This document shows, one piece after another, positions 13,305 to 57,898 of a stretch of DNA of 64,000 nt (positions are counted from its first letter, which is position 1; each line of letters begins with the position of its first letter). The DNA lies in NCBI GenBank assembly GCA_030583785.1, contig CP129475.1, forward strand, positions 850,209-914,208. Direction: 5' to 3'. The stretch is from Candidatus Dojkabacteria bacterium. Lineage in GTDB: Bacteria; Patescibacteriota; Dojkabacteria; B142; OLB20. The position numbers and the translations under genes were made by a program. Below the pieces are notes generated by a model, which searched no databases, was not told the DNA's origin, and saw only the letters and a list, made by a program, of their open reading frames with translations.

Positions 13305-14063
13305 GTGAAGACTTTTCTAAACAATCTAAAAACTGTATTTGCTAGTTCACAAGAACATCCTGTCGAATTCATCAAGATCAGGTTCCTTGTTATTTCTGGA
13401 ATTATCGGGAGCTTACTCCTTATTACTTATGCCATAATAAACTTTGCCATCGCTGATTATCCAGCAGCTGTTATGGAACTGATTATGGGCTTAATGATGC
13501 TTGCTGCTGTAATTATTTCGGTTGGTACTATGAAGCTTGGCCTTGCTTCTGCTCTTGGGCTTTTTCCAGTAGTGTTTATGACAATGCATAATTTTAACTC
13601 GGGTGGTTTCTTTGATACAGGGCTGTTGTGGTGTTATATTCTTCCGCCGGTATCAATTTTCCTAGTTGGAACACAAATTAGTACTGTTATTCATGTATTG
13701 TTTCTATTATTTACTTTGCTCCTTCGCACCCTTGCAAATACCGGTCAGGTAAACTTTATATATGGCGACTTTGAATATCTGATGTTTGTCTTAACCTATA
13801 CAACAGTGTTTTTACTAACTGCCCTTTTTGAAACTGCATGGCAGCAAAGTAATAGTGCTTTAATTGTCAAAGGTCTTTTGTTAGGAGAAAAGAACCTGGA
13901 ACTAGAAAGGACGATAGATACTCTAACAAAAACAAAAGGTGAACTATCGGCAAGTGTAGGCCGTTACGAGTCAGCAAACAAATTGCTAACAGAGGCTAAT
14001 CAAAAAGTTATTGAGCGAGAGAAGAAGATGGTAGAATTAAAGAGAAAATTGCAAAGCAATTAA
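13305..14063 (+). CDS. membrane-integrated sensor-like protein ending in signalling-helix-like coiled coil (no output domain)
   Basis: About 6 TM segments followed by a roughly 70-aa coiled coil ending ...EANQKVIEREKKMVELKRKLQSN. Confidence 0.5.
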   Translation: MKTFLNNLKTVFASSQEHPVEFIKIRFLVISGIIGSLLLITYAIINFAIADYPAAVMELIMGLMMLAAVIISVGTMKLGLASALGLFPVVFMTMHNFNSGGFFDTGLLWCYILPPVSIFLVGTQISTVIHVLFLLFTLLLRTLANTGQVNFIYGDFEYLMFVLTYTTVFLLTALFETAWQQSNSALIVKGLLLGEKNLELERTIDTLTKTKGELSASVGRYESANKLLTEANQKVIEREKKMVELKRKLQSN

Positions 14064-14088
14064 AAGATCCCGTTTATTGTAAATTCTT

Positions 14089-14991
14089 ATGAAATATCAA
14101 GTTCTCTTGTTTTACAAGTATGTGTTAGTTGATGATCCTCAGGCAGAAAAGCAAAAGCAATTAGACTACTTTAAGAAGTATAATCTTAAAGGCAGAATGA
14201 TTATTGCTAAAGAGGGTATAAACGCTACCCTTGAAGGTGAAATAACTGATACCGAAAGCTACATTCAAGAAATGTCGAAAGACAAGCGGTTTGCAGATAT
14301 TCATTGGAAGAAGAGTGAGGGTAACGGAAAATCTTTTCCAAAGATTAATATCAAGGTTCGTCCAGAAATCGTTAGTCTCGGACTGAAACATGACGATTTT
14401 GATCCAAACCAGATATCTGGAAAGTATATTACTGCAGAAGAGCTACATGATTTGTATGAATCCGGAGCTGAGTTTTATGTTATTGATATGCGAAACGACT
14501 ACGAGCAAAAGGTTGGTCATTTTGAAAGTGCTTTGCTTATGCCCATGAAAAACTTCAGAGAGCTGCCAGAACTAATCGAATCCATCAGTCATTTAAAAGA
14601 TAAGCTTGTAGTAACTACTTGTACAGGAGGGATTCGTTGTGAAAAGGCTTCTGGATTTTTAGTTAAGCATGGATTTACAAATGTCTATCAGCTATATGGT
14701 GGCATGCACAGCTATATCGAAAAGTATCCAGACCAGCATTTTAAGGGAAGTCTATATGTTTTTGATGGAAGACTTGTCTGGAGAATGAACGCTAGTGAGT
14801 CTGCCGTTATTTCAAGTTGCGAAATCTGCGGAGACTCTTCAGATCAGTATGTTGACTGTTCTTATCTTCATTGCAAGCAAAAAAGACACTTTATTGCCTG
14901 CGACAATTGCCGCAACGAAGATGGCACTGTTTACTGCTCAGAAAAATGTGCTGATTTGGCAAAGAAGAGCGGAGAAATCTTTAAGCCTTAA
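14089..14991 (+). CDS. trhO: rhodanese-domain tRNA uridine(34) hydroxylase, TrhO/YceA (UPF0176) family
   Basis: N-terminus (LLFYKY...GRIIIAKEGINATLEG) matches the family. A rhodanese catalytic Cys loop (TTCTGGIRCEKAS) is present, plus a C-terminal Cys-rich tail. Confidence 0.8.
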   Translation: MKYQVLLFYKYVLVDDPQAEKQKQLDYFKKYNLKGRMIIAKEGINATLEGEITDTESYIQEMSKDKRFADIHWKKSEGNGKSFPKINIKVRPEIVSLGLKHDDFDPNQISGKYITAEELHDLYESGAEFYVIDMRNDYEQKVGHFESALLMPMKNFRELPELIESISHLKDKLVVTTCTGGIRCEKASGFLVKHGFTNVYQLYGGMHSYIEKYPDQHFKGSLYVFDGRLVWRMNASESAVISSCEICGDSSDQYVDCSYLHCKQKRHFIACDNCRNEDGTVYCSEKCADLAKKSGEIFKP

Positions 14992-15006
14992 AAGTAGAAC
15001 GCTTTC

Positions 15007-17779: not shown

Positions 17780-17867
17780 AGTGAAGTATGTTGAAGAATC
17801 ACTGAAAAATTCCAGTAGATAAAATATAGCTTTTATTTATCAACAATACCAGCGTTTTATACGAAAT

Positions 17868-19067: not shown

Positions 19068-19138
19068 AAATACAGACTAACAGAAAATCCACTATCTCGT
19101 AAATGGTAATGTTTTCTCTGCATTGCTATACTTGTTTT

Positions 19139-20053
19139 ATGAAGGATTCAAAGCTAAAGAATAAGGATTTTGACAATATTACAATCGTAGTCCTTGTAGT
19201 TTTGATCTTGTTCTTTTTAGCTGTTGTCTTTATTAGTAGAACGCAACCATTACAAACAAGCGATACGCCTCTTGCCTCCAATCAACCAAGTATTAAGAAT
19301 TATATCTTTACGGCCAATACGGGAACTGGTGTTGAAGAAAATCAATATTATCTTGCTTCTTCATTAAATGAGTTTTGTTTAGAGAACTATTGTCAGTCGG
19401 TGTTTATCGCTGGGAACGCACTTGGTAAGCATATTGCTGTTTCTGCAATCGATCCTGAGTTTATTAAAAGATTTCAAGATCCGTATAGAGATTTTGAGGC
19501 ACCATTTTATATCGCACTTGGCGACAATGATAAAATCCAATGCCTTGATTGCTACATAAGTTTTTCAGACATATCTTCAATTTGGAAATTCGAGAGTAAT
19601 TACTACGAGGTAAAGGAACCCGGTATTAGCTTTTATGTCCTCGATACCAATACTATTGATCAAGAACAGATAAATTGGTTAGCAACAAGGCTAGCAGTTA
19701 ATAGTTCGAAAAAGAATGTAGTGGTAGGACATGCAGACATTATAAATTCGAATAACGCGGATATTAATGAGTTGAAAGAACTAATTTGCCGCCAAGCAGA
19801 TATGTTTGTGTCTGGGCAGCTTCTTGCTTTGGCGAAATACAGAGATATTAATGATTGTAATGCAGTATTTGTAAATTCTGGTATGGGGTCTAGTACACAA
19901 GGAATCACTATTGATTCTATTGAAGGTAATTCGGATTTTGATTTTTTTTCTGATGAGCCGGGCTATATAGTTCTAAGATCCATTGACGGATCAAATTTTG
20001 AAATATCTTTCTATTCGCAAGCAAATAATATATTATTTCAAACAACCATTTAG
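19139..20053 (+). CDS. membrane-anchored calcineurin-like metallophosphoesterase-like protein (degenerate motifs)
   Basis: N-terminal TM, then ALGDND and VVGHAD segments resembling phosphoesterase motifs. The start was chosen at the ATG that gives a canonical n-region; the tracked ORF begins 36 nt earlier. Confidence 0.4.
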   Translation: MKDSKLKNKDFDNITIVVLVVLILFFLAVVFISRTQPLQTSDTPLASNQPSIKNYIFTANTGTGVEENQYYLASSLNEFCLENYCQSVFIAGNALGKHIAVSAIDPEFIKRFQDPYRDFEAPFYIALGDNDKIQCLDCYISFSDISSIWKFESNYYEVKEPGISFYVLDTNTIDQEQINWLATRLAVNSSKKNVVVGHADIINSNNADINELKELICRQADMFVSGQLLALAKYRDINDCNAVFVNSGMGSSTQGITIDSIEGNSDFDFFSDEPGYIVLRSIDGSNFEISFYSQANNILFQTTI

Positions 20054-20055
20054 AT

Positions 20056-21258
20056 ATGTCGATCAGCACTAAATCAATCATACTTGTGTTTGTGTCGTTG
20101 TTGCTTCTGGTTCTTTTCAATCTTTCTTTCTCAAGAGCGTATATCCTATCTGGATTTGAAGAAGCAGAGAACAGGCATATTAGCAGCTCAATGAATCTTG
20201 TTCTAAACACTCTCAGAACCAAAGTCACGAATAGCTTAATTACCTCCAGAGATTATGCTGCTTGGGATGACACCTACAACTATCTTTTAGGGAATTATCC
20301 TACTTTTTTTGAATCGAATTTTACAGCAAATACATTAGATAATCTTGGCTTAAGTTTTTTAGCAATACTTGATGATGAAGATAATGTTGTTGATTCAGTC
20401 TTCTTAGATGACGAGGCTAACTTATTACAACCAGCACCTGATCGGTGGCTCGAATTTATACTTAGCAACCCCAAGTTGTTGGCTTTACCCGATGATGTAT
20501 CTCAACATGGAGACCTTCAGGAATCTGAGTTCGGACCTGTAATAATTACTGTTACAGCAGTCAATAATTCCGAGCTTACTGCAGAGTCACCTGGCAAGTT
20601 GGTCATGGTAGAATTACTTGATCAATCAAAACTTGACCAATTAGGTGAACAGTTGTTATTTCCAGTAAAGATAACACAGTCTCAAGTTGATCAGAATGCC
20701 TTGGCAGATGATGCCATAATTGCTATTCATAAGCTATCTGAAGACCAAGAGATTATTGTTGATCACACTAACTCTGTACACTATGCATACTCTTTCTATT
20801 ACTCACAATATTCAAACTCAAAACTTTTAATTCAGATTGAATGTACGCATGGAATTTTTGCACAGGGGGAAGATGTGTTGAATTATTATCTTCTACTAAT
20901 CATTGTTGGTGGAATAGTTACCTTGATAATTCTATATACGGGCATGACTACATTCTTGCTAAGGCCTTTAGGCAAGTTGAACAGTCAGTTGGATAATATA
21001 ATTCTCTCTAGCAATTTTACTTTAAGAACTGAGATAAATAAGGCTGGTGAGATATCAAGTCTTTCAGATAGGATTAACAGACTCTTGGATTCGGTTAATA
21101 GATCTGAGGCTACAATGATCAAACAGCAAGAGTTAGTCGAACAGAGGAACAAAGAACTTGCTGCACTTAATCAAGAGATGCTGGAGACAAATAAAATGAT
21201 GATAGGACGAGAACTGCAAATGGCAGAGCTTAAGAAGCAAATTGCCAAAGAGGAGTGA
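20056..21258 (+). CDS. sensor-like protein: TM - extracytoplasmic domain - TM - HAMP - signalling-helix-like C-terminus (no output domain)
   Basis: HAMP signature LLRPLGKLNSQL...AGEISSLSDRINRLLDSV; C-terminus ...NKMMIGRELQMAELKKQIAKEE. Confidence 0.55.
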   Translation: MSISTKSIILVFVSLLLLVLFNLSFSRAYILSGFEEAENRHISSSMNLVLNTLRTKVTNSLITSRDYAAWDDTYNYLLGNYPTFFESNFTANTLDNLGLSFLAILDDEDNVVDSVFLDDEANLLQPAPDRWLEFILSNPKLLALPDDVSQHGDLQESEFGPVIITVTAVNNSELTAESPGKLVMVELLDQSKLDQLGEQLLFPVKITQSQVDQNALADDAIIAIHKLSEDQEIIVDHTNSVHYAYSFYYSQYSNSKLLIQIECTHGIFAQGEDVLNYYLLLIIVGGIVTLIILYTGMTTFLLRPLGKLNSQLDNIILSSNFTLRTEINKAGEISSLSDRINRLLDSVNRSEATMIKQQELVEQRNKELAALNQEMLETNKMMIGRELQMAELKKQIAKEE

Positions 21259-21322
21259 TTCTAATCATCGACTTGAGTCCAAACAATATTTCGGGTAAGG
21301 TAAGGTATAGAGTCGATAGCTT

Positions 21323-22480
21323 ATGCCCAAAAGACAAGCCTTTACCATTCTTGAAGTACTTATAACAATAACACTTCTTGGTTTTCTTGCGACGATAACC
21401 ATAATTGCCATCAATCCTCAAAAATCAATTACCGAGGCTCGAGATGCAAAAATTCGAGAAATCGTAGAAGAATCGAGAGCTGCTGTTATCAATTATTCGA
21501 TCAATAACAACGGTGATCTTCCTCTAGTAGGTGGAAATCCGCTCCCGCTTGTGACAGCTGAAACTATTGTCAGTAATGGTGTTCTACTCCCAAGTGTAGA
21601 TGGTTTAATACCTGACTACTTGATTATTCTGGAAACCGAGATGCAAGATATTAGTGTTTATGTAGGATTATTTGCAGGAGATGTTCCAGTAACGGCGGCA
21701 TTTCTTAGCGGAGGGGACTTGTACATTAGTGCTCAAAATAATTTTGTCATTCAAGTTTCAACTACTCCAACACCAACGGCAACGGTAGTCCCAAGTTCAT
21801 GCAGTATTTCGTACACAGTTACAAATCAGTGGCAGGGCGGATTTAACGCCGAAGTCGTAATTACTAATGATTCAGGCGACGATCTTGTTGGTTGGGATGT
21901 TGATCTTGCTTTCTCAGGTGACCAGGCTGTTACTAATGCATGGAATGTGTTCTGGGAACAAAACGGTTCAAACTTCAGTGCCGAAAATCAAGGCTATAAT
22001 GCGACAATTACCGGAAATGGCGGTACTCAATCCTTTGGGTTTGGGGCAACTTTTTCTGGTAACAACTATGGTCCTTTGAACGACGAAATAACGCTGAATG
22101 GTACTCCATGCAATACAACAATCACCACCTTTGATACGCCGCCACCTGTAATTTTAGAGTCTTGTTCTGTCAGCTATCAGATTGGAGGTCAATGGGGTAA
22201 TAACTATACGGCAAGTGTTACTGTCACAAATAATGGCACAGAAAATATTAACGGGTGGGTACTTGATTGGGATTTTCCGGAAGATCAGTTAATAACAAGC
22301 ATATGGAACGCAGGTTATTCTCAGAATGGGCAAAGCGTTACGGCTAATGATTTGACATACAACGCGCAAATACCGCCAAATGGCGGTACTCAGTCGTTCG
22401 GATTTCAGGCAACTTTTGGGAGCCAGAATTCTTCTATACCAAGCACCGCCTTTACATTAAATGGCAATCAGTGCGAATAG
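21323..22480 (+). CDS. type IV pilin-like protein (prepilin N-terminal domain) fused to two CBM2 carbohydrate-binding modules
   Basis: N-terminus KRQAFTILEVLITITLLGFLATITIIAINP. The two modules (nt 21800-22111 and 22163-22474) have CBM2a hallmarks (C..Y.V.NQW..GF.A.V...N....W.....F..Q.VT..WN...GGTQSFGF...LNGTPC). Confidence 0.8.
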   Translation: MPKRQAFTILEVLITITLLGFLATITIIAINPQKSITEARDAKIREIVEESRAAVINYSINNNGDLPLVGGNPLPLVTAETIVSNGVLLPSVDGLIPDYLIILETEMQDISVYVGLFAGDVPVTAAFLSGGDLYISAQNNFVIQVSTTPTPTATVVPSSCSISYTVTNQWQGGFNAEVVITNDSGDDLVGWDVDLAFSGDQAVTNAWNVFWEQNGSNFSAENQGYNATITGNGGTQSFGFGATFSGNNYGPLNDEITLNGTPCNTTITTFDTPPPVILESCSVSYQIGGQWGNNYTASVTVTNNGTENINGWVLDWDFPEDQLITSIWNAGYSQNGQSVTANDLTYNAQIPPNGGTQSFGFQATFGSQNSSIPSTAFTLNGNQCE

Positions 22481-22482
22481 CA

Positions 22483-22500
22483 GATTACATCATTGTAATC
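22483..22500. terminator. short hairpin between convergent genes (possible bidirectional terminator)
   Basis: The sequence gattaca-tcat-tgtaatc forms a perfect 7-bp inverted repeat overlapping both stop codons. Confidence 0.2.
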
Positions 22501-22781
22501 AGCATCTTGCTGTAATGGTTGTCCTGTCGGTTAATTACTGATAGTTTCAGTTTTTTACCTTTGAGACTTGTTCCATGTAGCGTATCGATTGCTTTTTTTG
22601 TTGCGGCTTCTGTTGCCATAGTTACGATTGCTTCACCAAGTGACAGACCGTCATTTGTTCTTACAAGTTTCACCTCTTTAACATTTCCTGCTTGTTCAAA
22701 TAGATTCTGAATTTCAGACTCTGAAGAACCCCAAGAAAGATTGGCAACGGAAATCATACGATTTTCCATTTGTATTCTCAC
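22485..22781 (-). CDS. RRM-type RNA-binding protein
   Basis: About 90 aa with an RNP-2-like ISVANL and a glycine-poor RNP-1-like region. The size and architecture fit bacterial RRM proteins. Confidence 0.55.
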   Translation of the reverse strand: MRIQMENRMISVANLSWGSSESEIQNLFEQAGNVKEVKLVRTNDGLSLGEAIVTMATEAATKKAIDTLHGTSLKGKKLKLSVINRQDNHYSKMLITMM

Positions 22782-22931
22782 TAAAATAAATTTTCGAAAC
22801 GGGAATAATACTTAAACTGTGGCCGGAAAAACGGACAAAGAGGGTAATTCACATCTCAACCTAAATATATTAGCACATTTAATTACAATTACCTAATATC
22901 ATTTACTGAAAGTTTAGAAGTATAATCTTTT

Positions 22932-23513
22932 ATGCCAAGAATCTTTATTATTATATTTAATGGTTTACTCAGTTTGGTAATCGCTGCTATTGCCTTGTCA
23001 GTGATCGTAGTTCCATTTCTTCCAGAGCTAATCTATGAAGAGACTGGCGATGTAGAAATCGAGAATATTGTTCAAGAAACAAGAAAAACGCACAAAGAAG
23101 AGATCCGTGAGAATTTTCTGCTAATCCCTAAGATTCGTGTGGCTTCAATCATAAACGAAGGGGATTCATATCTTGCCCTTGATCAGGGTGCATGGAGAAG
23201 ACCACTTGCAAGTAATCCTAAAGAAGGGGGAAATACAGTTATAGTCGCGCATCGTTTCTTGAGTGGAATGCAAGAGAGGTCGTTTTATCATTTACCCAAG
23301 CTTGTGGTTGGTGACGAGATATATATCTACTGGGATAATGAAGAATATGTCTATGAGGTCTTTGAAACTAGAACAGTCGAACCTTACGATAAGGAAATTG
23401 AAGATAACTCAGATGAGCCGATCCTTACTTTATATACCTGTACGCCATTATGGACATCAGACAAAAGATTCGTAGTCTTGGCAAAACCAAAGCTGATAGA
23501 AGAGACTATTTAA
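22932..23513 (+). CDS. sortase (probably LAXTG-recognising, class-E-like)
   Basis: N-terminal TM with the catalytic triad context TVIVAHRF (His), TLYTCTP (TLxTC Cys) and DKRFVV (Arg). It is adjacent to an LAXTG substrate. Confidence 0.85.
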   Translation: MPRIFIIIFNGLLSLVIAAIALSVIVVPFLPELIYEETGDVEIENIVQETRKTHKEEIRENFLLIPKIRVASIINEGDSYLALDQGAWRRPLASNPKEGGNTVIVAHRFLSGMQERSFYHLPKLVVGDEIYIYWDNEEYVYEVFETRTVEPYDKEIEDNSDEPILTLYTCTPLWTSDKRFVVLAKPKLIEETI

Positions 23514-23593
23514 CAACAGTTCTATTGCTTGTGCTCTTGCTTCTAAGTCTAATGCTATATCTTTATGTAACGCAAAGTTACCAGGTGAATTTT

Positions 23594-26500
23594 TTAGAAT
23601 CCCTTAATACTCCTGAAACTGATTCTCTCGGAGATTGAACTAAGGTCTCTTCTTCTGCCAATTGTTAAGAGATTGTAATTCTTTATGTTTACTGCTGCCA
23701 GAGTGATTAATATCATAAATGCGGCAACTGAAGGTACTAAGAATGAGGACCCAGTTACTGCAAGTGTTGGTCTGATCCAAGTTGTCGGATCGTCAACTTC
23801 ACCTGTGGCTGGGTCATTGGAATACCTTGGTTCTTGACCTGCAAGGATGTCGTCATCAATGTCACCGTTTAGGTTGTCATCCCAGTAGACATAAGCATGG
23901 TTTTCGAGTGTTTCTATGGTTGGAGGTACAGTTGTTCTAAATGTAAGTACGACTTCGTTATCGCTGTCGTCCTCATCTGTCCCGCCAAGGTCCGGTGCAA
24001 TATTGCCCTCCCAGACAACTTGGTTATTCAATGAGTCGAAAGTACATAGAGTCGTTGTTGATAAGCCACGAGCTTCGCATTGAAAACTATCTGTCACATA
24101 GGTGGTGTTTACTGGAATCGGATCAATAATCCTTACATCCAGAGCCACAGTATTACCATCGTTAATCCAGACCATCTTCCATTCAATTTCTGGCAATCCA
24201 GCATCGTTAAATGTTTTTAGCGCCGATGGAGGATCAAAGACATTTGTATATAAGACGGGAACAGATGTGTCGTCTGAGTTGTCTTCTGGTCTGATATCTG
24301 GCCCGTTATTACCATCGTCAGTTATTGAGGCTTCATTATATATTTCCGAGTAGACAGGAGGGTAATCAGCTGTTGTTACAGCAAATTCTATTGATCCAGA
24401 TGTATTTCTGGGGACAGTCCCAACACTTATAGTACAAATACTACCGGGATTGTTGTCTGGAAGACAACTCCATCCAACCGAACTTAAAGTTGGGTTAAAA
24501 ACAGAATTATCCGGAACTGTATCGGAAATTTCTACTCCTGTTGCGTCTGTAGTGCCAAGGTTTTCGTAATTAAGGGTGAAAACGAGGTCAGTATTGAAAG
24601 AAACAGAAGAAGCCGTAGTCGTCTTTTCTATGGCAAGATCTACAACATTGCCCATAAGATTTTCGTCTGTGTCTGTATTGTTTGTAGGTGTTGGATCGAT
24701 GCCTTTACTGCCGTCATCCGTTACAGAAGCTGTATTGGTTATTGATGTGGTTAAAGGTGCAACCGGATTATCAATTATGACTGCGAATTGAATTGTTTCA
24801 TTCCCTCCGTTTTCTGCCAGAGGAGTACCGAGGTGGGAGCTTAGATCAAAGATGCAAGTGCTTCCGGCCGAATTGTCGGGGGTGCAAACCCATCCAGTTG
24901 TACTTAGCGAATCTTCAAAAGTTGTATTCGCTGGAACTTCTTCTGAGACAATAATTCCTGTAGCTTCAACCAGTCCTGAGTTGGTAATTGTCAGATTGTA
25001 AACTAAAGTATCACCCGGATCACTTTCTAATGCCCCGTCTGTTTTATCGATTTCTAAGTCGACTACGGCAACTGTAATGCTATCAGATGCAATAACTGGA
25101 CCGACAGTTCGTTCGTTGCTATTTGTGTTCGGAAGAGTGCTAAATTCGACGATTCTAGTTTGATTCGTAACTTGGGGATATACTGACTGATCAATTGTTC
25201 CAACAAGTTGAACACTAAAGCTTACCGTACAAGATTCTCCGGCCGGCAATTCAATTATTTGACCCGTTAATACAGGACTACTTGAATCATCAACTGACAT
25301 TGAAATCGTCACGCCTGCGCTGCATAAAGCCGAGATGTCGTTTTGATATAAAAATACTCCTGTGTGGATTGAGTTAAGATTGTCTAGCCAATCAACATCG
25401 AAGGCAGAAGAGCTGCCGTTGTTTTCTATGGTAATCTGTACATCAGCAAACTCGAATGGTGAAGCTTGATCTGGGTCTACTCCGGTATCAAATTCTTTAT
25501 CAATTGTTAAGTTCGGTTCTACAATATCGAAATCTATAGTATTCGAATTTACAATTTGACCGCTTGGCAGATTAGCCTGTAAACTTGATGTGTTTGAAAA
25601 TTGGGTTGTTCCAAGGGGCAATCCGTCGTTAAGAGGAATATCTAAAACGACTACATCAATTCTGATGCCAAAGAAGTCGTTTAGGCCATTTGCATCGACA
25701 TTGTTAACAACTCCAGAAAAATCGAATTGGAGGTTTGCACCAGCACTTCCATTTACGCAGCCACTGCAACTAGGTGCTGGAACTGTTCCATTGAAATCAA
25801 GAGCCATTTCACCAAAGCTATCGGCAGCGACGGTTACTAGGCTGTGAGATATGTAGGCCGTGTTGGCAGCTAAATTATCGATTAACCGAAGTGTAGATGT
25901 TGTTCCTTCGCCAATTCCAATGCGTAAGAAGTAACTAATCGTTTCTCCGATTGTAACTTGAATAGGATCTGTTGCATCAGAGGTGTGATTCGCAGATGTT
26001 TGACCAACCACTTTACTGATAGTTGGATTTGATGTGGAAACCATATTATCTGAATCTGTAACCGAATAATCGTTAAGTCCAGTGGCTCCGGTTTCTGATA
26101 GGTCGTAGTTTCCACTGCCATTTGTTCTGGCGTTTGTATTTGGTAGCGGAACTGAGCTCCATGTTGCCTGTGCAGTATTTGTTATGGTTTCGCTCGCTCC
26201 TGCGTTAACCGTTGCAGTTACGGTAATTGTTAGATATGTTCCATCATCTGGAAGGGTAAACGACCCAGTTGCTGGTACCAAAACTGTATTACCTGCAAAT
26301 GTTGAACTTGGGGTTGGAATAGAACCAGTAACTGCTACAGATACATTCGTTATTGTTAGATTTGTCTGAGCAGGATCTTGGATAACAACCTCGTATGCAT
26401 CTGCATTACTAGAAGCGTTATGCGTAACAACAATTTCGTATTCAACACTACTACCTGCTTGGACTAGAGGTGGTATAGAACTTGCCGTTTTAGATATATC

Positions 26501-29500
26501 CAAAATTGGCTCAATTACTGTAATTACTACTGGAACAGAGTCAGTTACACTGAGAACTCCTGCTGCATTTGGATTATCAAAGACTAATCCTGCAGTATTT
26601 GCTAATGTTGAGTTTCGTTGTAAACCAAGTTCGTTTAGCACTGTTAGGCTTAAGCGAATAATAAAACTGTTATTATTGCTATTGTTATCTGCTGTAGTAG
26701 TTATTGAGCTGAATGCGAGTGATACATCATCGCCACTACTTGCCCCACCTGTAACAACAGGTGTTGGGATCGATCCGGCAAAGTCTGCGCTAAGATTACC
26801 TCCAGCGGTAGTAATAATTTGATATGATGAGTACCTCATACCGTTTGGAATATAGTCAGTAACAACAACATTGTTGGCTGTGCCTTCGGGCATTGTTATT
26901 AGGATCTCGTAATTAACAGTTGAGCCGATAGCGTATGTGGTGACAGACGGTTCAAGCTTGTCGATGGTGATTGATCCAATCGTGGTATTGGCAGAACTAG
27001 AGGCAACATAATCATTAAGAAGGCCGACTCCGTCATTTCCATTTCGTTCTCCTGTAGAACTGCCACTTGCACCAGGTGTGCTTGACCCTGTTGGATTAGT
27101 TGTTGTTCCATTTGTGCTGGGAAGACTGCTCCAGCGAGCACTGGCAATGTTGTTAATTATTTCTTGTGGTTGTATGACAGAATCAACGATTGTATTTATT
27201 GTGATTGTCGCTTGTTGACCCTTGTTTAGAAAATCGAGAAGAATATCGACTGATTGCCCGCTACTGTTATCTGTGTAGCCATTTGGAGTAGATACAACTA
27301 CCGATCCGACAACAGCTTCTGCTGGAACCAAGTCCAGAACATTAATATCAAATGCGGTTGCCCCATTAACACTGGTATCTTGGTTTCTCACGGTCAATGT
27401 GTATTGAAGAGCGTCTCCTGCGTCTGTTGGAGCAATCGTAACAGCTTTAGAAACTGTGACAACAGGTTCAACCACACGAACTCTATTTGGATTTCCAGTA
27501 GTAGAAGTTGCTACTATTGAACCATTCTGCATTAATCTGAAGGTATTGTCTCTAGTTGTGGCAGCTTGATTTGTAGAAATATTTAGTACAAGTGCGTTAA
27601 ATTCAACAATGATGTACTCAAAATCTGTATCTCGGTCATCGTTTGTAACATTGCCGAATTTGAAATAAACCGATGTTCCACTACCGTATGTGTCGTTGTT
27701 GCTTGCTTCGGCACTAGATACTGCTGTATCTGGCAAAGGACATTCAGGAACAATGGAGTCTACATTTACTTCGTTACCCACAAAACTAAGATCGGGATTA
27801 CTACCACCATCACAGCCAATTGAGGCGGGAATTAAAGTGCTTGACGATATGCCTGCATCGTTGGCAACAAATGCAATCATAGCTGTTCCGTCGTTGATAA
27901 ATTGAAGTCCGGTTGGCAACATGTCTCTAAACATCAGATTCGGCGCCGTTGCTTCGGCAATACGGATGTAAGTCCTATATCTGATAATCTCTCCTACGGC
28001 AACTCTTTCAATTGAGCTAAGAACACCTGTTGAAGATTCTGATGTTGAAGTGATTAATTTCGTTGGATTTGCTGAAAGAATTGTTACTGTTCCGGATCCG
28101 GAAACAACATAGTCGTTCTCTGAACCTCCTGGATCTGAGGTGCTTCCGGTTCTTTCTGTCGAAGGAGAAGCATAGGTTGATTGATCGGTTAAAATTGATC
28201 CGGGCAAACTAGTCCACCTAGCGCTTGCTGTATTGATTATACTACTTCCAAGAGTAACGCTTCCGTCAATAGTTACATCAAAAGTTATTGTGCTACTCGA
28301 TCCATCGTCTGGAAAGGTTGCCCAGGATGCTGTAATTGTGCCAGACGATTCACTCGGTCCCACACTCGGAGCAAGTCCTGCTGTATGGTTAAGATTCCCA
28401 GCAAAGGTCATTCCTGATGGGATTACATCTGTAAGTTCTACTTCATAAGCATTGGCATCACTTGCGGGATTGTGATCGATTACCAGAGTAAAAGTGACTG
28501 TGTCTCCGGCATCGGCATTAGCTGCACTTGGAGTTTTTGTTACCCGAAGCGTTGGTTCTGCAATAACTACATTATCTGCACTATCGCTAACACTACCGTT
28601 TGCATAGGTGAAGACAGCGCTGTTATTCCTTTGTCTGTCTCTGTAGATTTCGTTATTATTTAGAACTACTGCTGAATAATTAAGTGTAATCGTTTCATCA
28701 ACAAGGTTGTTTGTATTGATATTTGTAAGCGTATTAAACGGAAACTCAATTGCTCGTCCTGAATTTGTTACTACTATTCCAGAAGCTACGCCTGCAAAAC
28801 CACCTGGGTAATCTGTGGTGAGATCGGGTGTTGACGAAGTTATTGAATTGATTCCAACAAGTGCAAGTCCCGAATCTAATGTATCTGTGAGTAGGGTGTT
28901 AATCATAACACCTTCTGGGATAGTAAGAACGACCTCGTATTCGATAATTTCTCCGACAACAACATATGGATCAATAGATCCTGCATGGTTGCTTCCGACA
29001 TAATTTTTTTCGATCTCCGGAATTTTAGTTTCGGTTACTTCTGCTGGATCTGATAAGCTTACAGCAAGGAAGTTGGGACCCATGTCTGAGCTGGAATACG
29101 ATGTTAATGAAGCGATATTTTCGATAAGTACCTCTGCATCAATAGATCCGATTATTTCTAAGTCATATGTAATTATGGCAATATTGCTGCCTGAAGTAGC
29201 ATGGTATGCAGATAAGGATCCAACAAGTGAATCGTCGAGCGTGATGCCTGAACCAAACAGGGGATATGTATCGAGCACATTTACTGGAGTCCATGCGAGT
29301 GGATTGCCAGCCCCATCAGTGATTGTCATGTTTAACCCTCCGCTGGGGACAATGAATTCACTTGGCAAAGTATCGGCAAAGGCAACATTGTAGGCTCCAT
29401 TTATGCCTTGACCGATATTTTCTATTACTACAGCAAAACTTACCAAGTCTGCGGCATCAACTCCAACTAGATTACTATCGATTGGTGTTGTCGTTAAATT

Positions 29501-31978
29501 GTTAGAATTGATGCCTGATCCAAAGCGGAATCCGGCACTCCCCGGTGCTGAAACGCTTGCAGGAGCAACACTGGCTGGATCAAATACAGCCACAGGTGAG
29601 TCTGTTGCAATTACGCCTTTTTGTATTCTTAAGTTTGGTAAGGTCAGCTCAACCTGAACAATCTGCGTTGCAGTTTGTGTCGTGCTGTTGGTAGTGCCTT
29701 GTGATGATTGCGCCTGATTTGTTAGGAATAGTCCATCTGCAAATGGTTCATCTGAAGCTGTAACAGTAACATATAACTCAACAATTGATGTCTGTTCGGT
29801 TAAGGTTTGGTGACTTCCATAGTCAAGGGTAAAAGTATTTGCAATGGCATCTGTCGATAAAGTAGGGACAATGCTTGTTAAAGCAAAATAAGTATCTCCT
29901 GCACCAAACTTGATTGTTCCGGGAGGTGGGATTGTAGCATCTTGAGTTGGATCAAAGGTTGTAATTTCTGTGGCCGCAAAAACTGGTAAGGGAAGATAAT
30001 CTGTAATAACAAGGTTTTCTACATCAGAGGTAGGCATTTCAAAGCGTATCCTGTATGTAATGGTGTCTCCAGGACCGATTTTCGGCGTTGAGTAAGAACC
30101 TATAACACCATTGATGGCGCGTATATCTTTTAATGCCAGCACTCCGTTGAGTATGCTCAGTCCGGATGAGCTTGTTTCTGTGACAGCGTTTCCGGTAGAA
30201 GATAGATTGGAATTGTTTAAGACTTCTGCAAATATCGTAACTTGGTTACCCAAAATATCTCCTTGATCGACATTCTCGTTTTGTGGCAGATAATCATCTG
30301 TGAATTCTTGTTGGATCTGTGCTCTAAAGACGAGTGTAGCTGTAGTAGCAGTAGAACCTGTGCAGTCGATTGCTCCTCCAATTAGTGGAACACAGCCACC
30401 GATCAGGTCGCCATCGTTGCTAAATGTCCTTAACAGCAGTTCAGAGCTTATGTCGAATATGATCTCTTGAGTTCCGTCGATTGGAGGTACCGCAGGAGAA
30501 CCGCCCGTGAAATGGTCTACAACTTGAATGTTTGCAGTATCAATGGATCCAGAAGTTGATGAGCCGTGCATATTAACGCTAAGCGTAGGATTAAAAGCGG
30601 GATAGTAGCGTTGTCCATCTGAAAGAATGTCTGTGATTGCAATGTTTTCTAGTGCGAAGAAGTCCGAAACTTGAAAATTTAGAGTGTACTGTACAATATC
30701 TCCAGGGGTGTATCCGGTTGGTCCAACATCTGTAGCCATAGCTACAGATTTTTGTATTACAAGACTGCAGGCTCGAAACTGTGCATCATTAGGCGTTGCA
30801 TCAGAGCTTAAAGGTGATAAGGTATCTCGTGGATCTATGGGTTGCCAGTTGGCGGTTGCCGATATATCGTTGGGGATAGTGACGCATCCTCCGAGAGTCG
30901 GATCAATAATAGAATCTAAGTCTGCATCTAGTTCGGGTACAAAGTAGTTGAAGGTGGCCGAGGCATCGGTTGCAGATGTTGTTCCCGTTAAAGAGGTCCA
31001 AGTTAGTTCCAACAAATTGTCTGGTGGATTCTGCGGAGATGCAGTTGAAGGTTGTTCGCTAATCGTTGCCGTTGGACTCGATGATGCCACAGAAAGGTAG
31101 TTTATTCGATTATCAAGATTGTCACTAAGTACGAAGTCGTCTAGTGTTTGTCCGTCTGCTATGTCTACAGCAAGTGCAAATTGTCTAGGGAAATTTTGGC
31201 CAGTTGCTGTTTCTCCTTCTGGTCCTACATATGATTTACGGATGCTGAAAACAGTTGGGTTTGTATTATAGTTAGAGAAAGTATTTAATATAGTTGGGTC
31301 TGTAGTAAAGTCGTTAGCTGGTGTTGCACCAAACTGAAATCCACCTCTAGCTTGCAGAGTAAGTGGTGTTCCTGCGTCAGCATAATCACTTAGATTTGCA
31401 CTAACTGATACAGTGACATTGGGTTGCCCCGGAACAAAAGAGCCAAAAGGTAACTGTAGTACTACAAATTTATCCCCGGGTGTGCCGCAGACTTGTATTG
31501 CAGTTCCTGTGTTATCGACAGCGTAAGGATGGTTAACACATGGCTCGGTATCTGTAAATTGATAAACATTAGTTGTTAGCGGCGAGCCTAGAAAAGTAGC
31601 GCTCAAAAAGTTAATACCGTCTGCTTCAAATCCTGGATCAAAAGGATATACTCCATCTGTTCCGTTAAAGGGAAAGATCATATCAATAAACGGACCGTAG
31701 CCTTCTGTTGTACCTGAGTTGACAAAAACCATCGAGAAATTAAAGTTTTCACCGATTAAGGTTTCGGTTGGGAAGGTTACATTCAGCACCGGATTTGGTG
31801 TTGCCGAAACTGGCTGAGGCAATACAAATAGGGGAGAAACAATAAGTAGAAGCAGGTTAAAAATCAGCAGTAAATTAAAAGCCGGTTTTTTTACTGCATT
31901 TTTTATAAATGAAAATAAACCTAATCTAGGGTTATGTTTTGGCAGGATATCAATCCTACTATAACTGACTCTATGCAT
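23594..31978 (-). CDS. giant (2794 aa) cell-wall-anchored surface protein with DUF11-type repeat domains and a C-terminal LAXTG sorting signal
   Basis: Signal peptide, many ~100-aa repeats of the conserved-repeat-domain type (e.g. GDTVTFTLVIDHNPASDANAYEVELTDVIPSGMTF), and C-terminal LAVTG + hydrophobic stretch + RRRD tail. Confidence 0.85.
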   Translation of the reverse strand: MHRVSYSRIDILPKHNPRLGLFSFIKNAVKKPAFNLLLIFNLLLLIVSPLFVLPQPVSATPNPVLNVTFPTETLIGENFNFSMVFVNSGTTEGYGPFIDMIFPFNGTDGVYPFDPGFEADGINFLSATFLGSPLTTNVYQFTDTEPCVNHPYAVDNTGTAIQVCGTPGDKFVVLQLPFGSFVPGQPNVTVSVSANLSDYADAGTPLTLQARGGFQFGATPANDFTTDPTILNTFSNYNTNPTVFSIRKSYVGPEGETATGQNFPRQFALAVDIADGQTLDDFVLSDNLDNRINYLSVASSSPTATISEQPSTASPQNPPDNLLELTWTSLTGTTSATDASATFNYFVPELDADLDSIIDPTLGGCVTIPNDISATANWQPIDPRDTLSPLSSDATPNDAQFRACSLVIQKSVAMATDVGPTGYTPGDIVQYTLNFQVSDFFALENIAITDILSDGQRYYPAFNPTLSVNMHGSSTSGSIDTANIQVVDHFTGGSPAVPPIDGTQEIIFDISSELLLRTFSNDGDLIGGCVPLIGGAIDCTGSTATTATLVFRAQIQQEFTDDYLPQNENVDQGDILGNQVTIFAEVLNNSNLSSTGNAVTETSSSGLSILNGVLALKDIRAINGVIGSYSTPKIGPGDTITYRIRFEMPTSDVENLVITDYLPLPVFAATEITTFDPTQDATIPPPGTIKFGAGDTYFALTSIVPTLSTDAIANTFTLDYGSHQTLTEQTSIVELYVTVTASDEPFADGLFLTNQAQSSQGTTNSTTQTATQIVQVELTLPNLRIQKGVIATDSPVAVFDPASVAPASVSAPGSAGFRFGSGINSNNLTTTPIDSNLVGVDAADLVSFAVVIENIGQGINGAYNVAFADTLPSEFIVPSGGLNMTITDGAGNPLAWTPVNVLDTYPLFGSGITLDDSLVGSLSAYHATSGSNIAIITYDLEIIGSIDAEVLIENIASLTSYSSSDMGPNFLAVSLSDPAEVTETKIPEIEKNYVGSNHAGSIDPYVVVGEIIEYEVVLTIPEGVMINTLLTDTLDSGLALVGINSITSSTPDLTTDYPGGFAGVASGIVVTNSGRAIEFPFNTLTNINTNNLVDETITLNYSAVVLNNNEIYRDRQRNNSAVFTYANGSVSDSADNVVIAEPTLRVTKTPSAANADAGDTVTFTLVIDHNPASDANAYEVELTDVIPSGMTFAGNLNHTAGLAPSVGPSESSGTITASWATFPDDGSSSTITFDVTIDGSVTLGSSIINTASARWTSLPGSILTDQSTYASPSTERTGSTSDPGGSENDYVVSGSGTVTILSANPTKLITSTSESSTGVLSSIERVAVGEIIRYRTYIRIAEATAPNLMFRDMLPTGLQFINDGTAMIAFVANDAGISSSTLIPASIGCDGGSNPDLSFVGNEVNVDSIVPECPLPDTAVSSAEASNNDTYGSGTSVYFKFGNVTNDDRDTDFEYIIVEFNALVLNISTNQAATTRDNTFRLMQNGSIVATSTTGNPNRVRVVEPVVTVSKAVTIAPTDAGDALQYTLTVRNQDTSVNGATAFDINVLDLVPAEAVVGSVVVSTPNGYTDNSSGQSVDILLDFLNKGQQATITINTIVDSVIQPQEIINNIASARWSSLPSTNGTTTNPTGSSTPGASGSSTGERNGNDGVGLLNDYVASSSANTTIGSITIDKLEPSVTTYAIGSTVNYEILITMPEGTANNVVVTDYIPNGMRYSSYQIITTAGGNLSADFAGSIPTPVVTGGASSGDDVSLAFSSITTTADNNSNNNSFIIRLSLTVLNELGLQRNSTLANTAGLVFDNPNAAGVLSVTDSVPVVITVIEPILDISKTASSIPPLVQAGSSVEYEIVVTHNASSNADAYEVVIQDPAQTNLTITNVSVAVTGSIPTPSSTFAGNTVLVPATGSFTLPDDGTYLTITVTATVNAGASETITNTAQATWSSVPLPNTNARTNGSGNYDLSETGATGLNDYSVTDSDNMVSTSNPTISKVVGQTSANHTSDATDPIQVTIGETISYFLRIGIGEGTTSTLRLIDNLAANTAYISHSLVTVAADSFGEMALDFNGTVPAPSCSGCVNGSAGANLQFDFSGVVNNVDANGLNDFFGIRIDVVVLDIPLNDGLPLGTTQFSNTSSLQANLPSGQIVNSNTIDFDIVEPNLTIDKEFDTGVDPDQASPFEFADVQITIENNGSSSAFDVDWLDNLNSIHTGVFLYQNDISALCSAGVTISMSVDDSSSPVLTGQIIELPAGESCTVSFSVQLVGTIDQSVYPQVTNQTRIVEFSTLPNTNSNERTVGPVIASDSITVAVVDLEIDKTDGALESDPGDTLVYNLTITNSGLVEATGIIVSEEVPANTTFEDSLSTTGWVCTPDNSAGSTCIFDLSSHLGTPLAENGGNETIQFAVIIDNPVAPLTTSITNTASVTDDGSKGIDPTPTNNTDTDENLMGNVVDLAIEKTTTASSVSFNTDLVFTLNYENLGTTDATGVEISDTVPDNSVFNPTLSSVGWSCLPDNNPGSICTISVGTVPRNTSGSIEFAVTTADYPPVYSEIYNEASITDDGNNGPDIRPEDNSDDTSVPVLYTNVFDPPSALKTFNDAGLPEIEWKMVWINDGNTVALDVRIIDPIPVNTTYVTDSFQCEARGLSTTTLCTFDSLNNQVVWEGNIAPDLGGTDEDDSDNEVVLTFRTTVPPTIETLENHAYVYWDDNLNGDIDDDILAGQEPRYSNDPATGEVDDPTTWIRPTLAVTGSSFLVPSVAAFMILITLAAVNIKNYNLLTIGRRRDLSSISERISFRSIKGF

Positions 31979-32096
31979 AAGCAGTAAAAATTTTCGTGCT
32001 GATAATACAGGTTAACACCTGCTTTTCACGAAGACAATATTAATTATTACAATAACTTCTTATCTCTTGTAAGATATAAGAATTAGAAACAGGCAA

Positions 32097-34091: not shown

Positions 34092-34128
34092 GGGAAGAAT
34101 TTAAAAATACACAAGCAATTTAGCAAAT

Positions 34129-35259
34129 TCAAGAAGAATAATCTATTGCTTGATTGATTGCCTCGATTATGTCTGGGATTTGATTCCCACGATAGGGTAT
34201 TGATCTGCCAAGAGTCTGATAAATTTTTATTCTGCTTAATCTATAATAAAGCTCATCTGGTAACTCTTGCATTCGATTCTCTGTAGTATAATCCATTAAC
34301 AAGTCAGCTATAGTTTTGCCGGGTTCGAGTGGACCAATCCTTTGCATCTCAGCTAGTAAGGGTAGCATAAGAGTTCTAGTATTAACTCGAGCTTCCTCTG
34401 CGAGGAATTGAAGCTGTGATATCTGCTCATCACATATCTCTGGTTTAAGCTGTTTTAGTCTATATCCCAAATACCCTATGGCTATTGTTTCTGCAAGTCT
34501 TTCTTTTTCAGAATCGAATAGAGAATCAACAGTTCTATGATCAAATTGGTAGGCAAGACCTTGTTGTTTTAGGAATTCATAGACAAGACCTTCGTTAATA
34601 ATGTCTTGTAAACCGTGTGTATATTCGTGCGCTGCAAGCCAACTAGTTGCTAGCTGCAGTAATTGATCACTTTCTAGATTCAAATTCATTTGTGATGAGA
34701 AGTCATCAAGGAGTCGATATTTGTATGCTAATACAGCAGATGTAAATCTGATCAATGGTTTTTCGCTGACTATAAATGGTTTTACATACACTGAGCTATC
34801 GTATACTGTTTCAGATACTACATAGGTGATATCTGCATCAGAAATCCATAAGTTGAGTCTATTTGCAGATGTATTGTTTAAGCCAATACTTTCAAGATAT
34901 GCGGAAAAACCATCTATCTCTGCAACAAACCAATTTTTTATGACGCGAGGGGGTTTGTTAAAGGGAATTTCAGGTTTTTGGTCATCATTCAGCAGTCCAT
35001 TTTCAAGAAGATTAGTGACAAGCTGCATATCTACTCCTGAACATCTCGTGATCAAGCTCCCATTCTCTTCGTGGCAACGAGTTCCCTGCAGAACAGAGTG
35101 GGCTATCTGTAATATTATCCCAGGATCGCAATCACTGAGACGATATTCACTTACAAGTCGATCTAGAACAGCAGTATCTTCTTCGCAAGCGGTATTAAGC
35201 TGAATCCTTCTTGCTTGTTCAATAATACTTGAAAGATCCGGTTCGGTGTCTAAACACAT
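34129..35259 (-). CDS. hypothetical protein with HExxH (putative zinc-metallopeptidase) motif
   Basis: 376 aa with AAHEYTHGLQD; no signal peptide. Confidence 0.4.
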   Translation of the reverse strand: MCLDTEPDLSSIIEQARRIQLNTACEEDTAVLDRLVSEYRLSDCDPGIILQIAHSVLQGTRCHEENGSLITRCSGVDMQLVTNLLENGLLNDDQKPEIPFNKPPRVIKNWFVAEIDGFSAYLESIGLNNTSANRLNLWISDADITYVVSETVYDSSVYVKPFIVSEKPLIRFTSAVLAYKYRLLDDFSSQMNLNLESDQLLQLATSWLAAHEYTHGLQDIINEGLVYEFLKQQGLAYQFDHRTVDSLFDSEKERLAETIAIGYLGYRLKQLKPEICDEQISQLQFLAEEARVNTRTLMLPLLAEMQRIGPLEPGKTIADLLMDYTTENRMQELPDELYYRLSRIKIYQTLGRSIPYRGNQIPDIIEAINQAIDYSS

Positions 35260-35320
35260 AGGTATATCATATATATACCTATTATATCACAGCGAGGCTA
35301 ATTCAAGTATAATCCTTTTA

Positions 35321-36781
35321 CTATTGACCCTTTTTAATCTCTTCTTTAAGCTCTGCCATAGATATCTCGCGCTCTACCATTGTATCTATTGCTTTTTCGA
35401 GCTCTTTGACCTTGTTGGCAAGTTGTGTGCGAATGTCTTTATTTTCGTGGATATCAATAATTATTCCTCTTATACCTTTGATACTATTCTCTTCAATAAT
35501 TGGGGAAACATACACCATAACGGCAAGTTTGCTCCCGTCCTTTCTGATTGCGAGCATCTCCAGGGCCTTGTCTGGATGACTTAACAGATGAAGATAGTTT
35601 ATTTTGTTTCCTGCTTCGTCATGTATAAGCTTGCAAATAGTCAGTATATTTGTGATCTCCTCTGGCTTTTGTCCAAACAGAGATTCAGACGATTTATTTA
35701 TGTATTTTATTAGACCTGAATCGTCTGTTTCAAAGACAACCTGCGGAAGAAGATCTGTTAGATGTTTGAATCTGGTTTCTGATTTTAGAAGTTGTTTTGT
35801 CTTATCTTCAACATTTCTGGTTAGAACGAGATTATATCTGCGAGCTACTACCACATAAACAATGCCAAGCGTCAGAATTAGTCCAGAGATTAATGCAAAC
35901 GGGCGAATCCAACCAGGTTCAACTTCAACTTCGACAGGTTCAACAATTTTCTCTAGGTTCTCAAGGATCGATGTGTAGTAAATGCTATTGCTATCAGCTT
36001 TAAGCTCGAGCATGTGTCTATCCAGCGCCTCCTTAAGGTAAGGTGTCATATCCGAATTCTTGCTTAAAGCAAATTTCAGTTCGACCGGATTAAAGACAAT
36101 GCTGGAGCGGGATACATTATAATCCTTTTCGCTGAAGGTGCCGAATAGTCTATTAACAACAGCAACATCTGCGATATTATCCTCAATGGCTTGAAGATTT
36201 TCTTCATAAGAATCGAATTCAACGAAGGTTGCTTTAATATCAAAATTTTTGATTAGATTGCGAATCCCAAGTGGTCCTATAGAATGGATATCTTCTTTCA
36301 TGACTGCTATTCGAAGACCCTCTAAGTCAGTAAATGAACTTAGCAACATTCCCGGTCTGGAATATACAGATGCCCAGTTAATAAATGCTGTTTCGTTGGC
36401 AAATTCGAATATTTCGGCTCTCTCCGGGAAATATCCCACATCTACCATAATATCTACTTGGTCTCTGCGAAGTTTTTCTAAGCCCTCGTCCCAACCTGCG
36501 TTCTCGTAGACTATATTCCAGTTTTCTTTTTCTGCAATGTATTCAAGGATGTCTGGCCAGAAGCCCTTTACATTACCCTCCGAATCTGTAGAGATCTTTG
36601 GTGGGTTATTATAGATTGCTACTCTAATGTTTCGGCTTGCAGTGTTGCTAACTTGAGGAGAACTTGCCAAAACAGTTGGGGGTAGAATCAAAGAAAAGAA
36701 AAAAACAACAATAAGAAATATTGTTTTCATTTGTCTTTCATAATTTAGTTCTATTGTAAACCCAAATATGTGCTTATGCAA
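35321..36781 (-). CDS. sensor-like protein: signal peptide - family-3 solute-binding (VFT) domain - TM - PAS - signalling-helix-like C-terminus (no kinase/output domain)
   Basis: SBP_bac_3-like region (RVAIYNNPPK...FANETAFINWASVYSRPG), a TM (IRPFALISGLILTLGIVYVVV), a PAS domain (LPQVVFETDDSGLIKYINKSSESLFG...), and the C-terminus ...IDTMVEREISMAELKEEIKKGQ. Confidence 0.6.
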   Translation of the reverse strand: MHKHIFGFTIELNYERQMKTIFLIVVFFFSLILPPTVLASSPQVSNTASRNIRVAIYNNPPKISTDSEGNVKGFWPDILEYIAEKENWNIVYENAGWDEGLEKLRRDQVDIMVDVGYFPERAEIFEFANETAFINWASVYSRPGMLLSSFTDLEGLRIAVMKEDIHSIGPLGIRNLIKNFDIKATFVEFDSYEENLQAIEDNIADVAVVNRLFGTFSEKDYNVSRSSIVFNPVELKFALSKNSDMTPYLKEALDRHMLELKADSNSIYYTSILENLEKIVEPVEVEVEPGWIRPFALISGLILTLGIVYVVVARRYNLVLTRNVEDKTKQLLKSETRFKHLTDLLPQVVFETDDSGLIKYINKSSESLFGQKPEEITNILTICKLIHDEAGNKINYLHLLSHPDKALEMLAIRKDGSKLAVMVYVSPIIEENSIKGIRGIIIDIHENKDIRTQLANKVKELEKAIDTMVEREISMAELKEEIKKGQ

Positions 36782-57851: not shown

Positions 57852-57898
57852 CCCTATCCAGCCGCAGTAGACTGTGGATAATTGTTAATCCGCTTGCT

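Follow-up and report, generated by a model that had tools for sequence, protein, structure and literature searches.

Three sensor genes that end directly after a coiled coil

Many prokaryotic 'PAS/GAF/HAMP domain-containing proteins' possess no recognisable output domain, and their function has long been an open question. The same question is raised by three genes in a 64,000-nucleotide stretch (hereafter the window; positions 850,209 to 914,208 of contig CP129475.1) of the genome of Candidatus Dojkabacteria (WS6), a member of the Candidate Phyla Radiation (CPR)/Patescibacteria. The genes, found at 13305..14063 and 20056..21258 on the + strand and at 35321..36730 on the - strand, encode sensor proteins that terminate with a common tail, and it is not evident from their domains how a signal would leave the polypeptide. 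On balance, our comparative analysis makes it probable that diverse sensors of this kind are docked by the tail, acting as an output module, onto a separately encoded histidine kinase that carries a particular linker helix.

The three proteins differ in their input regions. Sensor 1 (WKZ27697.1, 252 residues, public name 'hypothetical protein') is polytopic, with six hydrophobic segments in its sequence and six transmembrane (TM) helices in its AlphaFold2 (AF2) model, followed by a cytoplasmic helix and the tail. Its match to MASE6 (PF20966), at 19.8 bits (E 8.6e-4), stayed below the gathering threshold of 27.4, and the likeness is that of a 6-TM sensor module only. Sensor 2 (WKZ27703.1, 400 residues, 'CHASE4/HAMP domain-containing protein') has the order TM-CHASE4-TM-HAMP-helix-tail. 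Its extracytoplasmic CHASE4 domain (residues 63-206, 20242..20673) was clearly above the Pfam gathering threshold (77.4 bits, E 1.5e-21), and the HAMP-like segment at 20959..21099, where the AF2 model displays a helix-loop-helix (267-317 / 329-), gave a sub-threshold match of 15.4 bits. Sensor 3 (WKZ27711.1, 469 residues, 'transporter substrate-binding domain-containing protein') consists of a signal peptide, an SBP_bac_3 periplasmic binding domain (35996..36628; 43.5 bits, E 3e-11), a TM segment, a PAS domain (35444..35773; PAS_9, 40.5 bits, E 3.5e-10), a helix and the tail, both Pfam matches being above the gathering threshold. A preliminary description of the window had given the same broad layout (a polytopic membrane domain, an extracytoplasmic domain with HAMP, and SBP3, TM and PAS), which stands except that the HAMP domain of sensor 2 is only sub-threshold. 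The start of sensor 3, placed there at a TTG at 36781, has to be revised; it is probably the ATG at 36730, in agreement with the public gene calls and with the first residues of the signal peptide, the TTG being 17 codons too far upstream.

Inspection of the C-termini confirmed the three open reading frames (ORFs) and the earlier observation that each ends right after a coiled coil with a shared motif, the peptides quoted at that time being found at the very ends. The common motif is [VM][IV][EG]-R-E-x-x-M-[AV]-E-L-K, with the stop codon 6-7 residues beyond. When the window is translated in six frames, the string M.ELK turns up at only four places, three of them in the sensor tails. In AF2 monomer models the tail forms the last part of a single long helix without interruption (sensor 1, residues 154-251; sensor 2, residues 329-399). 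The tail module occupies 13965..14054 in sensor 1 (RExxMxELK core at 14016-14042, stop at 14061-14063), 21130..21249 in sensor 2 (NKMMIGRELQMAELKKQI; core at 21208-21234, stop at 21256-21258) and, on the - strand, 35330..35431 in sensor 3 (TMVEREISMAELKEEI; core at 35345-35371, stop at 35321-35323).

We could not identify any output domain in or near these genes. Pfam scans of the ORFs in the 64-kb window gave no HisKA, HATPase_c, Response_reg, GGDEF, EAL or methyl-accepting chemotaxis protein (MCP) domain. Hidden Markov models (HMMs) of kinases and receivers, constructed locally from the comparison loci described below, agreed with this, in line with the preliminary description, in which none had been recognised. 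The same local HMMs and precomputed Pfam matches on called genes revealed none of these domains in the window or in the ~8-9 kb past each of its ends. The three proteins themselves lack HisKA and HATPase_c in Pfam, and the local kinase HMM gave only noise with them.

A trivial explanation would be a truncation or frameshift in genes for histidine kinases or cyclases, in the form of assembly artefacts or pseudogenes. Input domains and a coiled coil do normally precede a catalytic domain, and some ORFs elsewhere that consist of the module alone are gene fragments (in loci L014 and L015, see below). However, identical proteins are encoded in a closed 1.17 Mb genome, in a second metagenome-assembled genome (that of WS6 bacterium OLB21) and in dozens of assemblies made from independent read sets. 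The stops are therefore real and an artefact is excluded, as had been expected from the window itself. Unrelated genes begin 25-65 nt past each stop, and the stop position is kept in thousands of relatives. Together, the identical independent assemblies, the neighbouring genes and the conserved stop refute the truncation reading, to which we assign practically no probability.

The tail is a conserved module found in Bacteria and Archaea

A profile of six tails was searched exhaustively with HMMER against 1.84 billion cluster representatives at 50% identity, and 4,758 representatives matched at E<=0.001. Of the best 150, about 147 had the end of the motif 6-31 residues before the C-terminus. 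The exhaustive search was needed: a word-indexed homologue search with a three-sequence tail profile returned almost nothing (23 candidates), and with a 61-tail profile it returned solely ORFs of 43-79 residues (P0155-P0261).

The consensus of the family is E-x-R-V-x-E-R-T-A-E-L-E-x-K-N-x-E-L-E-x-x-N-K-x-F-V-G-R-E-L-R-M-x-E-L-K-K-x-I-x-x-L-E, after which a short variable end and the stop follow; a longer sub-variant ends in ...ELKKEINxLxxxLGRPxPY. The positions G-R-E, M and E-L-K, which include both surface and core positions, are near-invariant across Bacteria and Archaea. The first part of the consensus contains the ERT signature that defines the signalling helix (S-helix), whose Arg occupies a core d position (Anantharaman, Balaji & Aravind 2006, PMC1592074). 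The Arg of this signature and the Arg of G-R-E are 21 residues, or exactly three heptads, apart in 223 of the 243 tails with an xRT; the latter is therefore a core-position residue too.

Judging from this arrangement, RExxMxELK is a separate cap and not an S-helix signature; in canonical members a true ERT S-helix precedes it by exactly three heptads. The resemblance to an ERT-type S-helix, which had been pointed out in the preliminary description, thus applies to the segment that precedes the cap and not to the motif by which it was noticed. Canonical tails share with S-helices the ERT, the core d Arg and a parallel coiled coil of roughly five heptads placed after PAS, HAMP, GAF or receiver (REC) domains, and the cap repeats the theme of a polar Arg in d exactly three heptads later. 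The S-helix, on the other hand, is described as joining a sensor or receiver on its upstream side to a catalytic or other domain that follows it (PMC1592074), whereas in tail proteins only the conserved three-heptad cap and the stop follow, with no downstream effector in the window sensors. The cap lies outside the S-helix definition, and the ERT register is lost in two of the three window proteins.

Whether the window sensors belong to the family was evaluated with an independent profile compiled from 296 tails, all of them from organisms other than Dojkabacteria. Sensors 2, 3 and 1 scored 44.1, 30.2 and 22.2 bits, respectively, and the next best of 984 stop-to-stop segments in the window scored 4.2 bits, which argues against a generic coiled coil. 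At a database size (Z) of 1.8e9 these scores correspond to E values of 1.2e-6 for sensor 2, the only one that is individually significant, 0.028 for sensor 3 and 8.6 for sensor 1. By these scores, sensor 2 is a canonical, sensor 3 a good and sensor 1 a divergent member. Sensor 2 has Q-R-N at the ERT position and retains the Arg; sensor 3 has an I-R-T shifted by one residue, with Glu in place of the Gly preceding the cap Arg; sensor 1, the most divergent, has no ERT.

The regions preceding the tail were surveyed with Pfam in 103 family members of at least 200 residues. PAS domains were found most often (74), followed by GAF (25), HAMP (18), Response_reg (7), PocR (6), Tll0287-like (6) and SBP_bac_3 (4), along with Cache, MASE1 and MASE11. 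Kinase (HisKA/HATPase), cyclase (GGDEF) and MCP domains were not among the top families in this census, and MCPsignal was absent from all 103 members as well as from the three window proteins. The proteins with a REC domain in front of the tail argue in favour of an output role for the module.

The module appears to be undescribed in the libraries and literature that we examined. Pfam (2025), NCBIfam (2026) and the PDB (2026) contained no model or structure for it. Window and canonical tails matched Pfam and NCBIfam only at the level of sub-threshold coiled-coil noise, with additional weak similarity to linkers (a REC-HD-GYP 'NosR family' and NahK). In the literature on the motif, on stand-alone PAS/coiled-coil sensors and on two-component systems of Dojkabacteria and Patescibacteria, we found no description of the tail module.

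The NahK similarity bears on the possibility that the tail corresponds, in degenerate form, to the first helix of the dimerization and histidine phosphotransfer (DHp) domain; it would then form inactive heterodimers with the DHp domain of a kinase in the manner of RetS and GacS. The G-R-E-L-R of the cap superficially resembles S-H-E-L-R, the tail begins where DHp begins in S-helix kinases, and the weak NCBIfam matches were to the NahK linker region. Nevertheless, no tail matched Pfam HisKA even at E<=10. In an ungapped register it is Gly, and not Arg, that falls on the His position, and when hhalign was run between the tail profile and that of the S-helix-linker-DHp segment in partner kinases, only 14 columns were aligned, outside the H-box, with a probability of 5.5%. 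We regard this explanation as improbable.

Less probable still, in our estimation, is that the tail is a DNA-binding helix similar to basic leucine zippers (bZIP) and that the sensors are one-component transcription regulators. A dimeric helix with conserved Asn and Arg is reminiscent of such proteins, some module-only ORFs have been automatically named 'nucleic acid-binding Zn-ribbon protein' by JGI, and one standalone protein gave a weak match to bZIP_1 (E 0.016). The tail region is of mixed charge rather than basic, however, most members are anchored to the membrane through long helices, and all matches of this type are sub-threshold coiled-coil noise.

Module-only ORFs deserve a separate comment, as 'free-standing module proteins' are real only in part. 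Several are pieces of PAS-tail genes that a stop or frameshift has interrupted (L014 5001-5135, L015 5001-5153), and a 77-residue module gene situated between a TM protein and a kinase in Patescibacteria (L016 5001-5234; loci L016/L017) seems genuine. Other atypical members are P0009 (359 residues), P0091 (306 residues), P0111 (945 residues) and P0142. Two proteins harbour two modules in one chain; one of them is P0009, whose region between the modules looks CBS-like by eye.

Tail genes are linked to histidine kinases with a conserved linker helix

We then examined the genes surrounding tail genes in other organisms. A scan with one genome per GTDB species gave at least 512 confirmed matches, from which 78 loci were kept. 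These span more than ten phyla and comprise, in Bacteria, Geobacteraceae/Desulfuromonadales, Nitrospirota, Bacteroidota, Ignavibacteriae, Verrucomicrobiota, Aminicenantes, Smithellaceae and many Patescibacteria, and in Archaea, Methanoperedenaceae/anaerobic methanotrophs (ANME-2) and DPANN lineages. In 77 genomic loci, 146 of the 148 tail HMM matches were C-terminal, consistent with the stop position being the same in thousands of relatives. With the local HMMs, a kinase core was found in none of the 146 tail genes, so that relatives with fused kinases are not seen, and a receiver was found in 13. The suggestion that the window sensors belong to a family of output-less sensors has therefore proved correct, and the family is very large, is found in both prokaryotic domains and is not peculiar to this genome.

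Tail genes often occur in tandem arrays of 2-8. The usual gene order is one or more tail genes, sometimes one small ORF, a histidine kinase, a single-domain receiver, and then a second receiver or a hybrid kinase. A kinase gene was present on the same strand within two genes downstream in 42 of 84 arrays, compared with 14 of 73 upstream (p 6e-5), and the gaps between tail gene and kinase gene were often -4 to +33 nt, so that the two genes frequently overlap and are in many cases translationally coupled. The architectures of the window proteins recur beside such kinases: 7TM-tail and PAS-tail proteins in L015 and an SBP_bac_3-TM-PAS-tail protein in L014 are encoded next to kinases with the linker helix described below.

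The downstream kinases have varied input domains of their own and canonical HisKA and HATPase_c domains. What they share is a linker helix, s-Q-x-A-L-[LM]-N-[ILM]-[VLM]-E-D-L-N, located 13 or 20 residues past the xRT of the kinase itself. The distance from the Asn of this helix to the phospho-accepting His was 35 residues in 21 cases, 42 in three and 28 in one, which makes the helix heptad-locked to this His; in CPR kinases the helix instead precedes an extra PAS domain. Kinases with the linker helix were encoded within three genes downstream in 29 of 84 arrays and upstream in only 2 of 73 (p 1.6e-7), and the helix was present in 23 of 40 adjacent kinases compared with 10 of 46 others. Only 3 of the 37 matches of a linker-helix HMM were to non-kinases. 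Helix and tail are almost never combined in one protein (1/103, 0/104); P0111 is the sole protein in which we saw a kinase-type LNxxED helix together with a tail.

The two elements also co-vary. Among 43 pairs of adjacent tail and kinase genes, Phe at the tail residue three before the Arg (heptad position a) was accompanied by Val at the kinase residue two after the Asn in 25 of 26 cases, and Ala, Ser, Thr or Met at the same tail position was accompanied by Leu or Met in 17 of 17. This size-compensating pattern is what residues in contact within a core would be expected to give. The window tails, with Met, Met and Val at this position, are of the second type.

Taking into account that receivers are also common in these operons, the tail might instead dock on the single-domain CheY-like receivers encoded after the kinase, or on another shared partner, in which case the sensors would sequester or present a response regulator. 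CheY-like domains are known to be bound by helical peptides, as in CheZ and FliM. The typical order, tail gene(s)-kinase-REC-(REC or kinase fused to REC), is compatible with such docking, and a receiver was encoded within three genes downstream in 28 of 70 arrays, compared with 16 of 61 upstream. The enrichment and asymmetry are nevertheless greater for the linker-helix kinases, the co-variation is with the kinase helix, and fusions of REC to the tail fit an output module better than a module that binds REC. We consider receiver docking quite unlikely.

Alternatively, the tail could be a mere cap that stabilizes dimers or oligomers and has no dedicated partner; the sensors would then be ligand buffers or scaffolds, or act through their membrane or PAS regions, and kinases would be nearby only because signalling genes tend to cluster. 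In favour of this, the module is a coiled coil, and about half of the arrays, as well as the three window genes, have no adjacent kinase. On the other hand, the near-invariance of surface as well as core positions in Bacteria and Archaea goes far beyond what dimerization demands, a simple homodimer would not readily accommodate an Arg at a core d position, and the strong downstream/upstream asymmetry is specific for one kinase subtype. This explanation we also judge to be unlikely.

Several points weigh against docking of the tail onto the linker-helix kinase, the reading that we favour. The binding of tail and kinase is proposed from sequence and gene order. The co-variation states largely follow two operon lineages (Proteobacteria/Bacteroidota/Nitrospirota/ANME and CPR/DPANN), and the number of independent events is therefore small. 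The enrichment of the linker helix is measured against the upstream side of the arrays and against 46 other kinases. About half of the tail arrays elsewhere have no neighbouring kinase, and sensor 1 is a weak family member, with 22 bits and no ERT. Finally, no kinase, receiver or linker-helix protein was found in ~82 kb (window plus flanks) of the Dojkabacteria genome; the window sensors are not adjacent to a kinase with an ALLNxxEDLN helix, an adjacency that is frequent and not universal in the family (29 of 84 arrays). The preliminary description had raised the possibility that the sensors signal in trans through coiled-coil pairing with a shared partner. Comparative genomics supports a shared partner, pointing to the histidine-kinase subfamily encoded immediately downstream of tail genes in other genomes. 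No partner was found in the ~82 kb of window and flanks, and the pairing itself is a proposal.

Orphan arrays are also present in other CPR genomes. Locus L081 (Paceibacterota) contains about eight consecutive paralogous tail genes of ~345 residues and L055 contains five, with no kinase within 10 kb; they resemble the dispersed genes of the window. Some CPR loci encode a conserved protein of ~200 residues between the tail genes and the kinase (L015 4001-4597 and 5187-5786, L073 10140-10739, L074 with three copies, L075, L084, L090 and L095). It displays invariant Cys and His residues (HPxxCxYLxGYF...ExKCxFxGxxxHEY) and a sub-threshold similarity to V4R; possibly it adds a third component to the system, one that binds a ligand or metal. 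No homologue of this V4R-like protein was found in the window or its ~8-9 kb flanks.

A proposed mechanism and its relation to known systems

If the tail does dock on the kinase, the tail of a sensor dimer would associate with the kinase linker helix as a helical bundle formed in trans, in which the core Arg (d position) of the tail would be buried beside the acidic Glu-Asp face of the kinase helix. A signal-induced change in the coiled coil of the sensor could then pass to the DHp domain and switch the kinase. Several sensors, encoded in the tandem arrays, would feed one kinase core, as chemoreceptors do with CheA. For Dojkabacteria, the prediction is that a kinase bearing an N[IVM][LM]ED helix is encoded at an unlinked site and is the target of the three dispersed orphan sensors.

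The logic, in which a number of sensors would share a single histidine kinase encoded by a gene of its own, would be analogous to that of MCPs and CheA, and tail proteins further resemble MCPs in their variable inputs, their absence of an enzymatic output, their conserved coiled-coil end and their frequent occurrence as tandem paralogues. They differ in that MCPsignal is missing and that the tail is a single helix end of 40-45 residues, whereas the MCP tip is a long antiparallel hairpin. In place of CheA/CheW, the kinases linked to tail genes are of the class I HisKA type and possess sensors themselves, and no methylation machinery was seen.

A second comparison is with accessory regulators of kinases such as Sda/KipI-KinA, RetS-GacS, LiaF-LiaS, YycH/I-WalK and LuxP-LuxQ, in which a separate polypeptide modulates a kinase by contact, as is proposed here for tails, and which are likewise linked in operons. 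Each of these is individual and system-specific, whereas the tail is one portable module on dozens of input architectures, paired with a conserved 'socket' helix in kinases across Bacteria and Archaea. No sequence similarity of the tail to these regulators was found in Pfam, NCBIfam or the PDB. As for the four-helix bundles of HAMP and DHp domains, the proposed trans bundle would similarly be a heptad-locked helical relay beside the phospho-accepting His, although the tail matches neither HAMP nor HisKA profiles and the bundle would join two different proteins.

A wider generalization, of broad importance if correct, can be put forward tentatively, as one that has a substantial chance of holding without being the more probable outcome. 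Tail proteins may constitute a hitherto unrecognised, pan-prokaryotic 'plug-and-socket' layer of two-component signalling, consisting of thousands of enzyme-less sensors and receivers, a portable helix as the plug and the ALLNxxEDLN helix in the linker of class I kinases as the socket, with many inputs multiplexed onto one kinase core and with particular use in genome-reduced CPR bacteria and DPANN archaea. If true, this layer would be the HisKA-kinase counterpart of chemoreceptor-CheA signalling. For thousands of output-less sensors there would be an output mechanism open to testing, and the partner predicted for them would be a kinase subfamily that can be identified from a single helix. The reconstruction of signalling networks from genomes would change, as many-to-one wiring of sensors and kinases is missed by domain-based censuses, and it would be explained how very small genomes combine diverse sensing with few kinases. 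The helix pair could also provide a compact, modular means to engineer synthetic connections between sensors and kinases.

Other genes in the window

Two uncharacterised genes adjoin the sensors and are possible local partners. One, encoding 316 residues at 19103-20053 (+), ends 3 nt before sensor 2; the other, encoding 376 residues at 34129-35259 (-), starts 61 nt past sensor 3. Neither product gave a match in Pfam or NCBIfam. Farther away, two neighbouring LiaF-like genes (LiaF-TM, Toast_rack_N, LiaF-like_C) are present at 57845-58891 and 58914-59591 (+) with no LiaS kinase or LiaR regulator nearby, and represent a second accessory two-component part without its kinase.

Directly 3' of sensor 2, the gene at 21323-22480 (+) encodes a protein in which two CBM_2 cellulose-binding domains are fused to an N-terminal methylation motif of the type IV pilin kind. 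With a sortase gene at 22932-23513 (+) and a gene for a 2,794-residue surface protein with CLIPPER and bMG10 matches at 23594-31978 (-), it makes up a cell-surface or attachment cluster that is unusual for a CPR bacterium. A small gene at 22485-22781 (-) encodes an RNA-binding protein of ~94 residues with an RNA recognition motif (RRM) domain.

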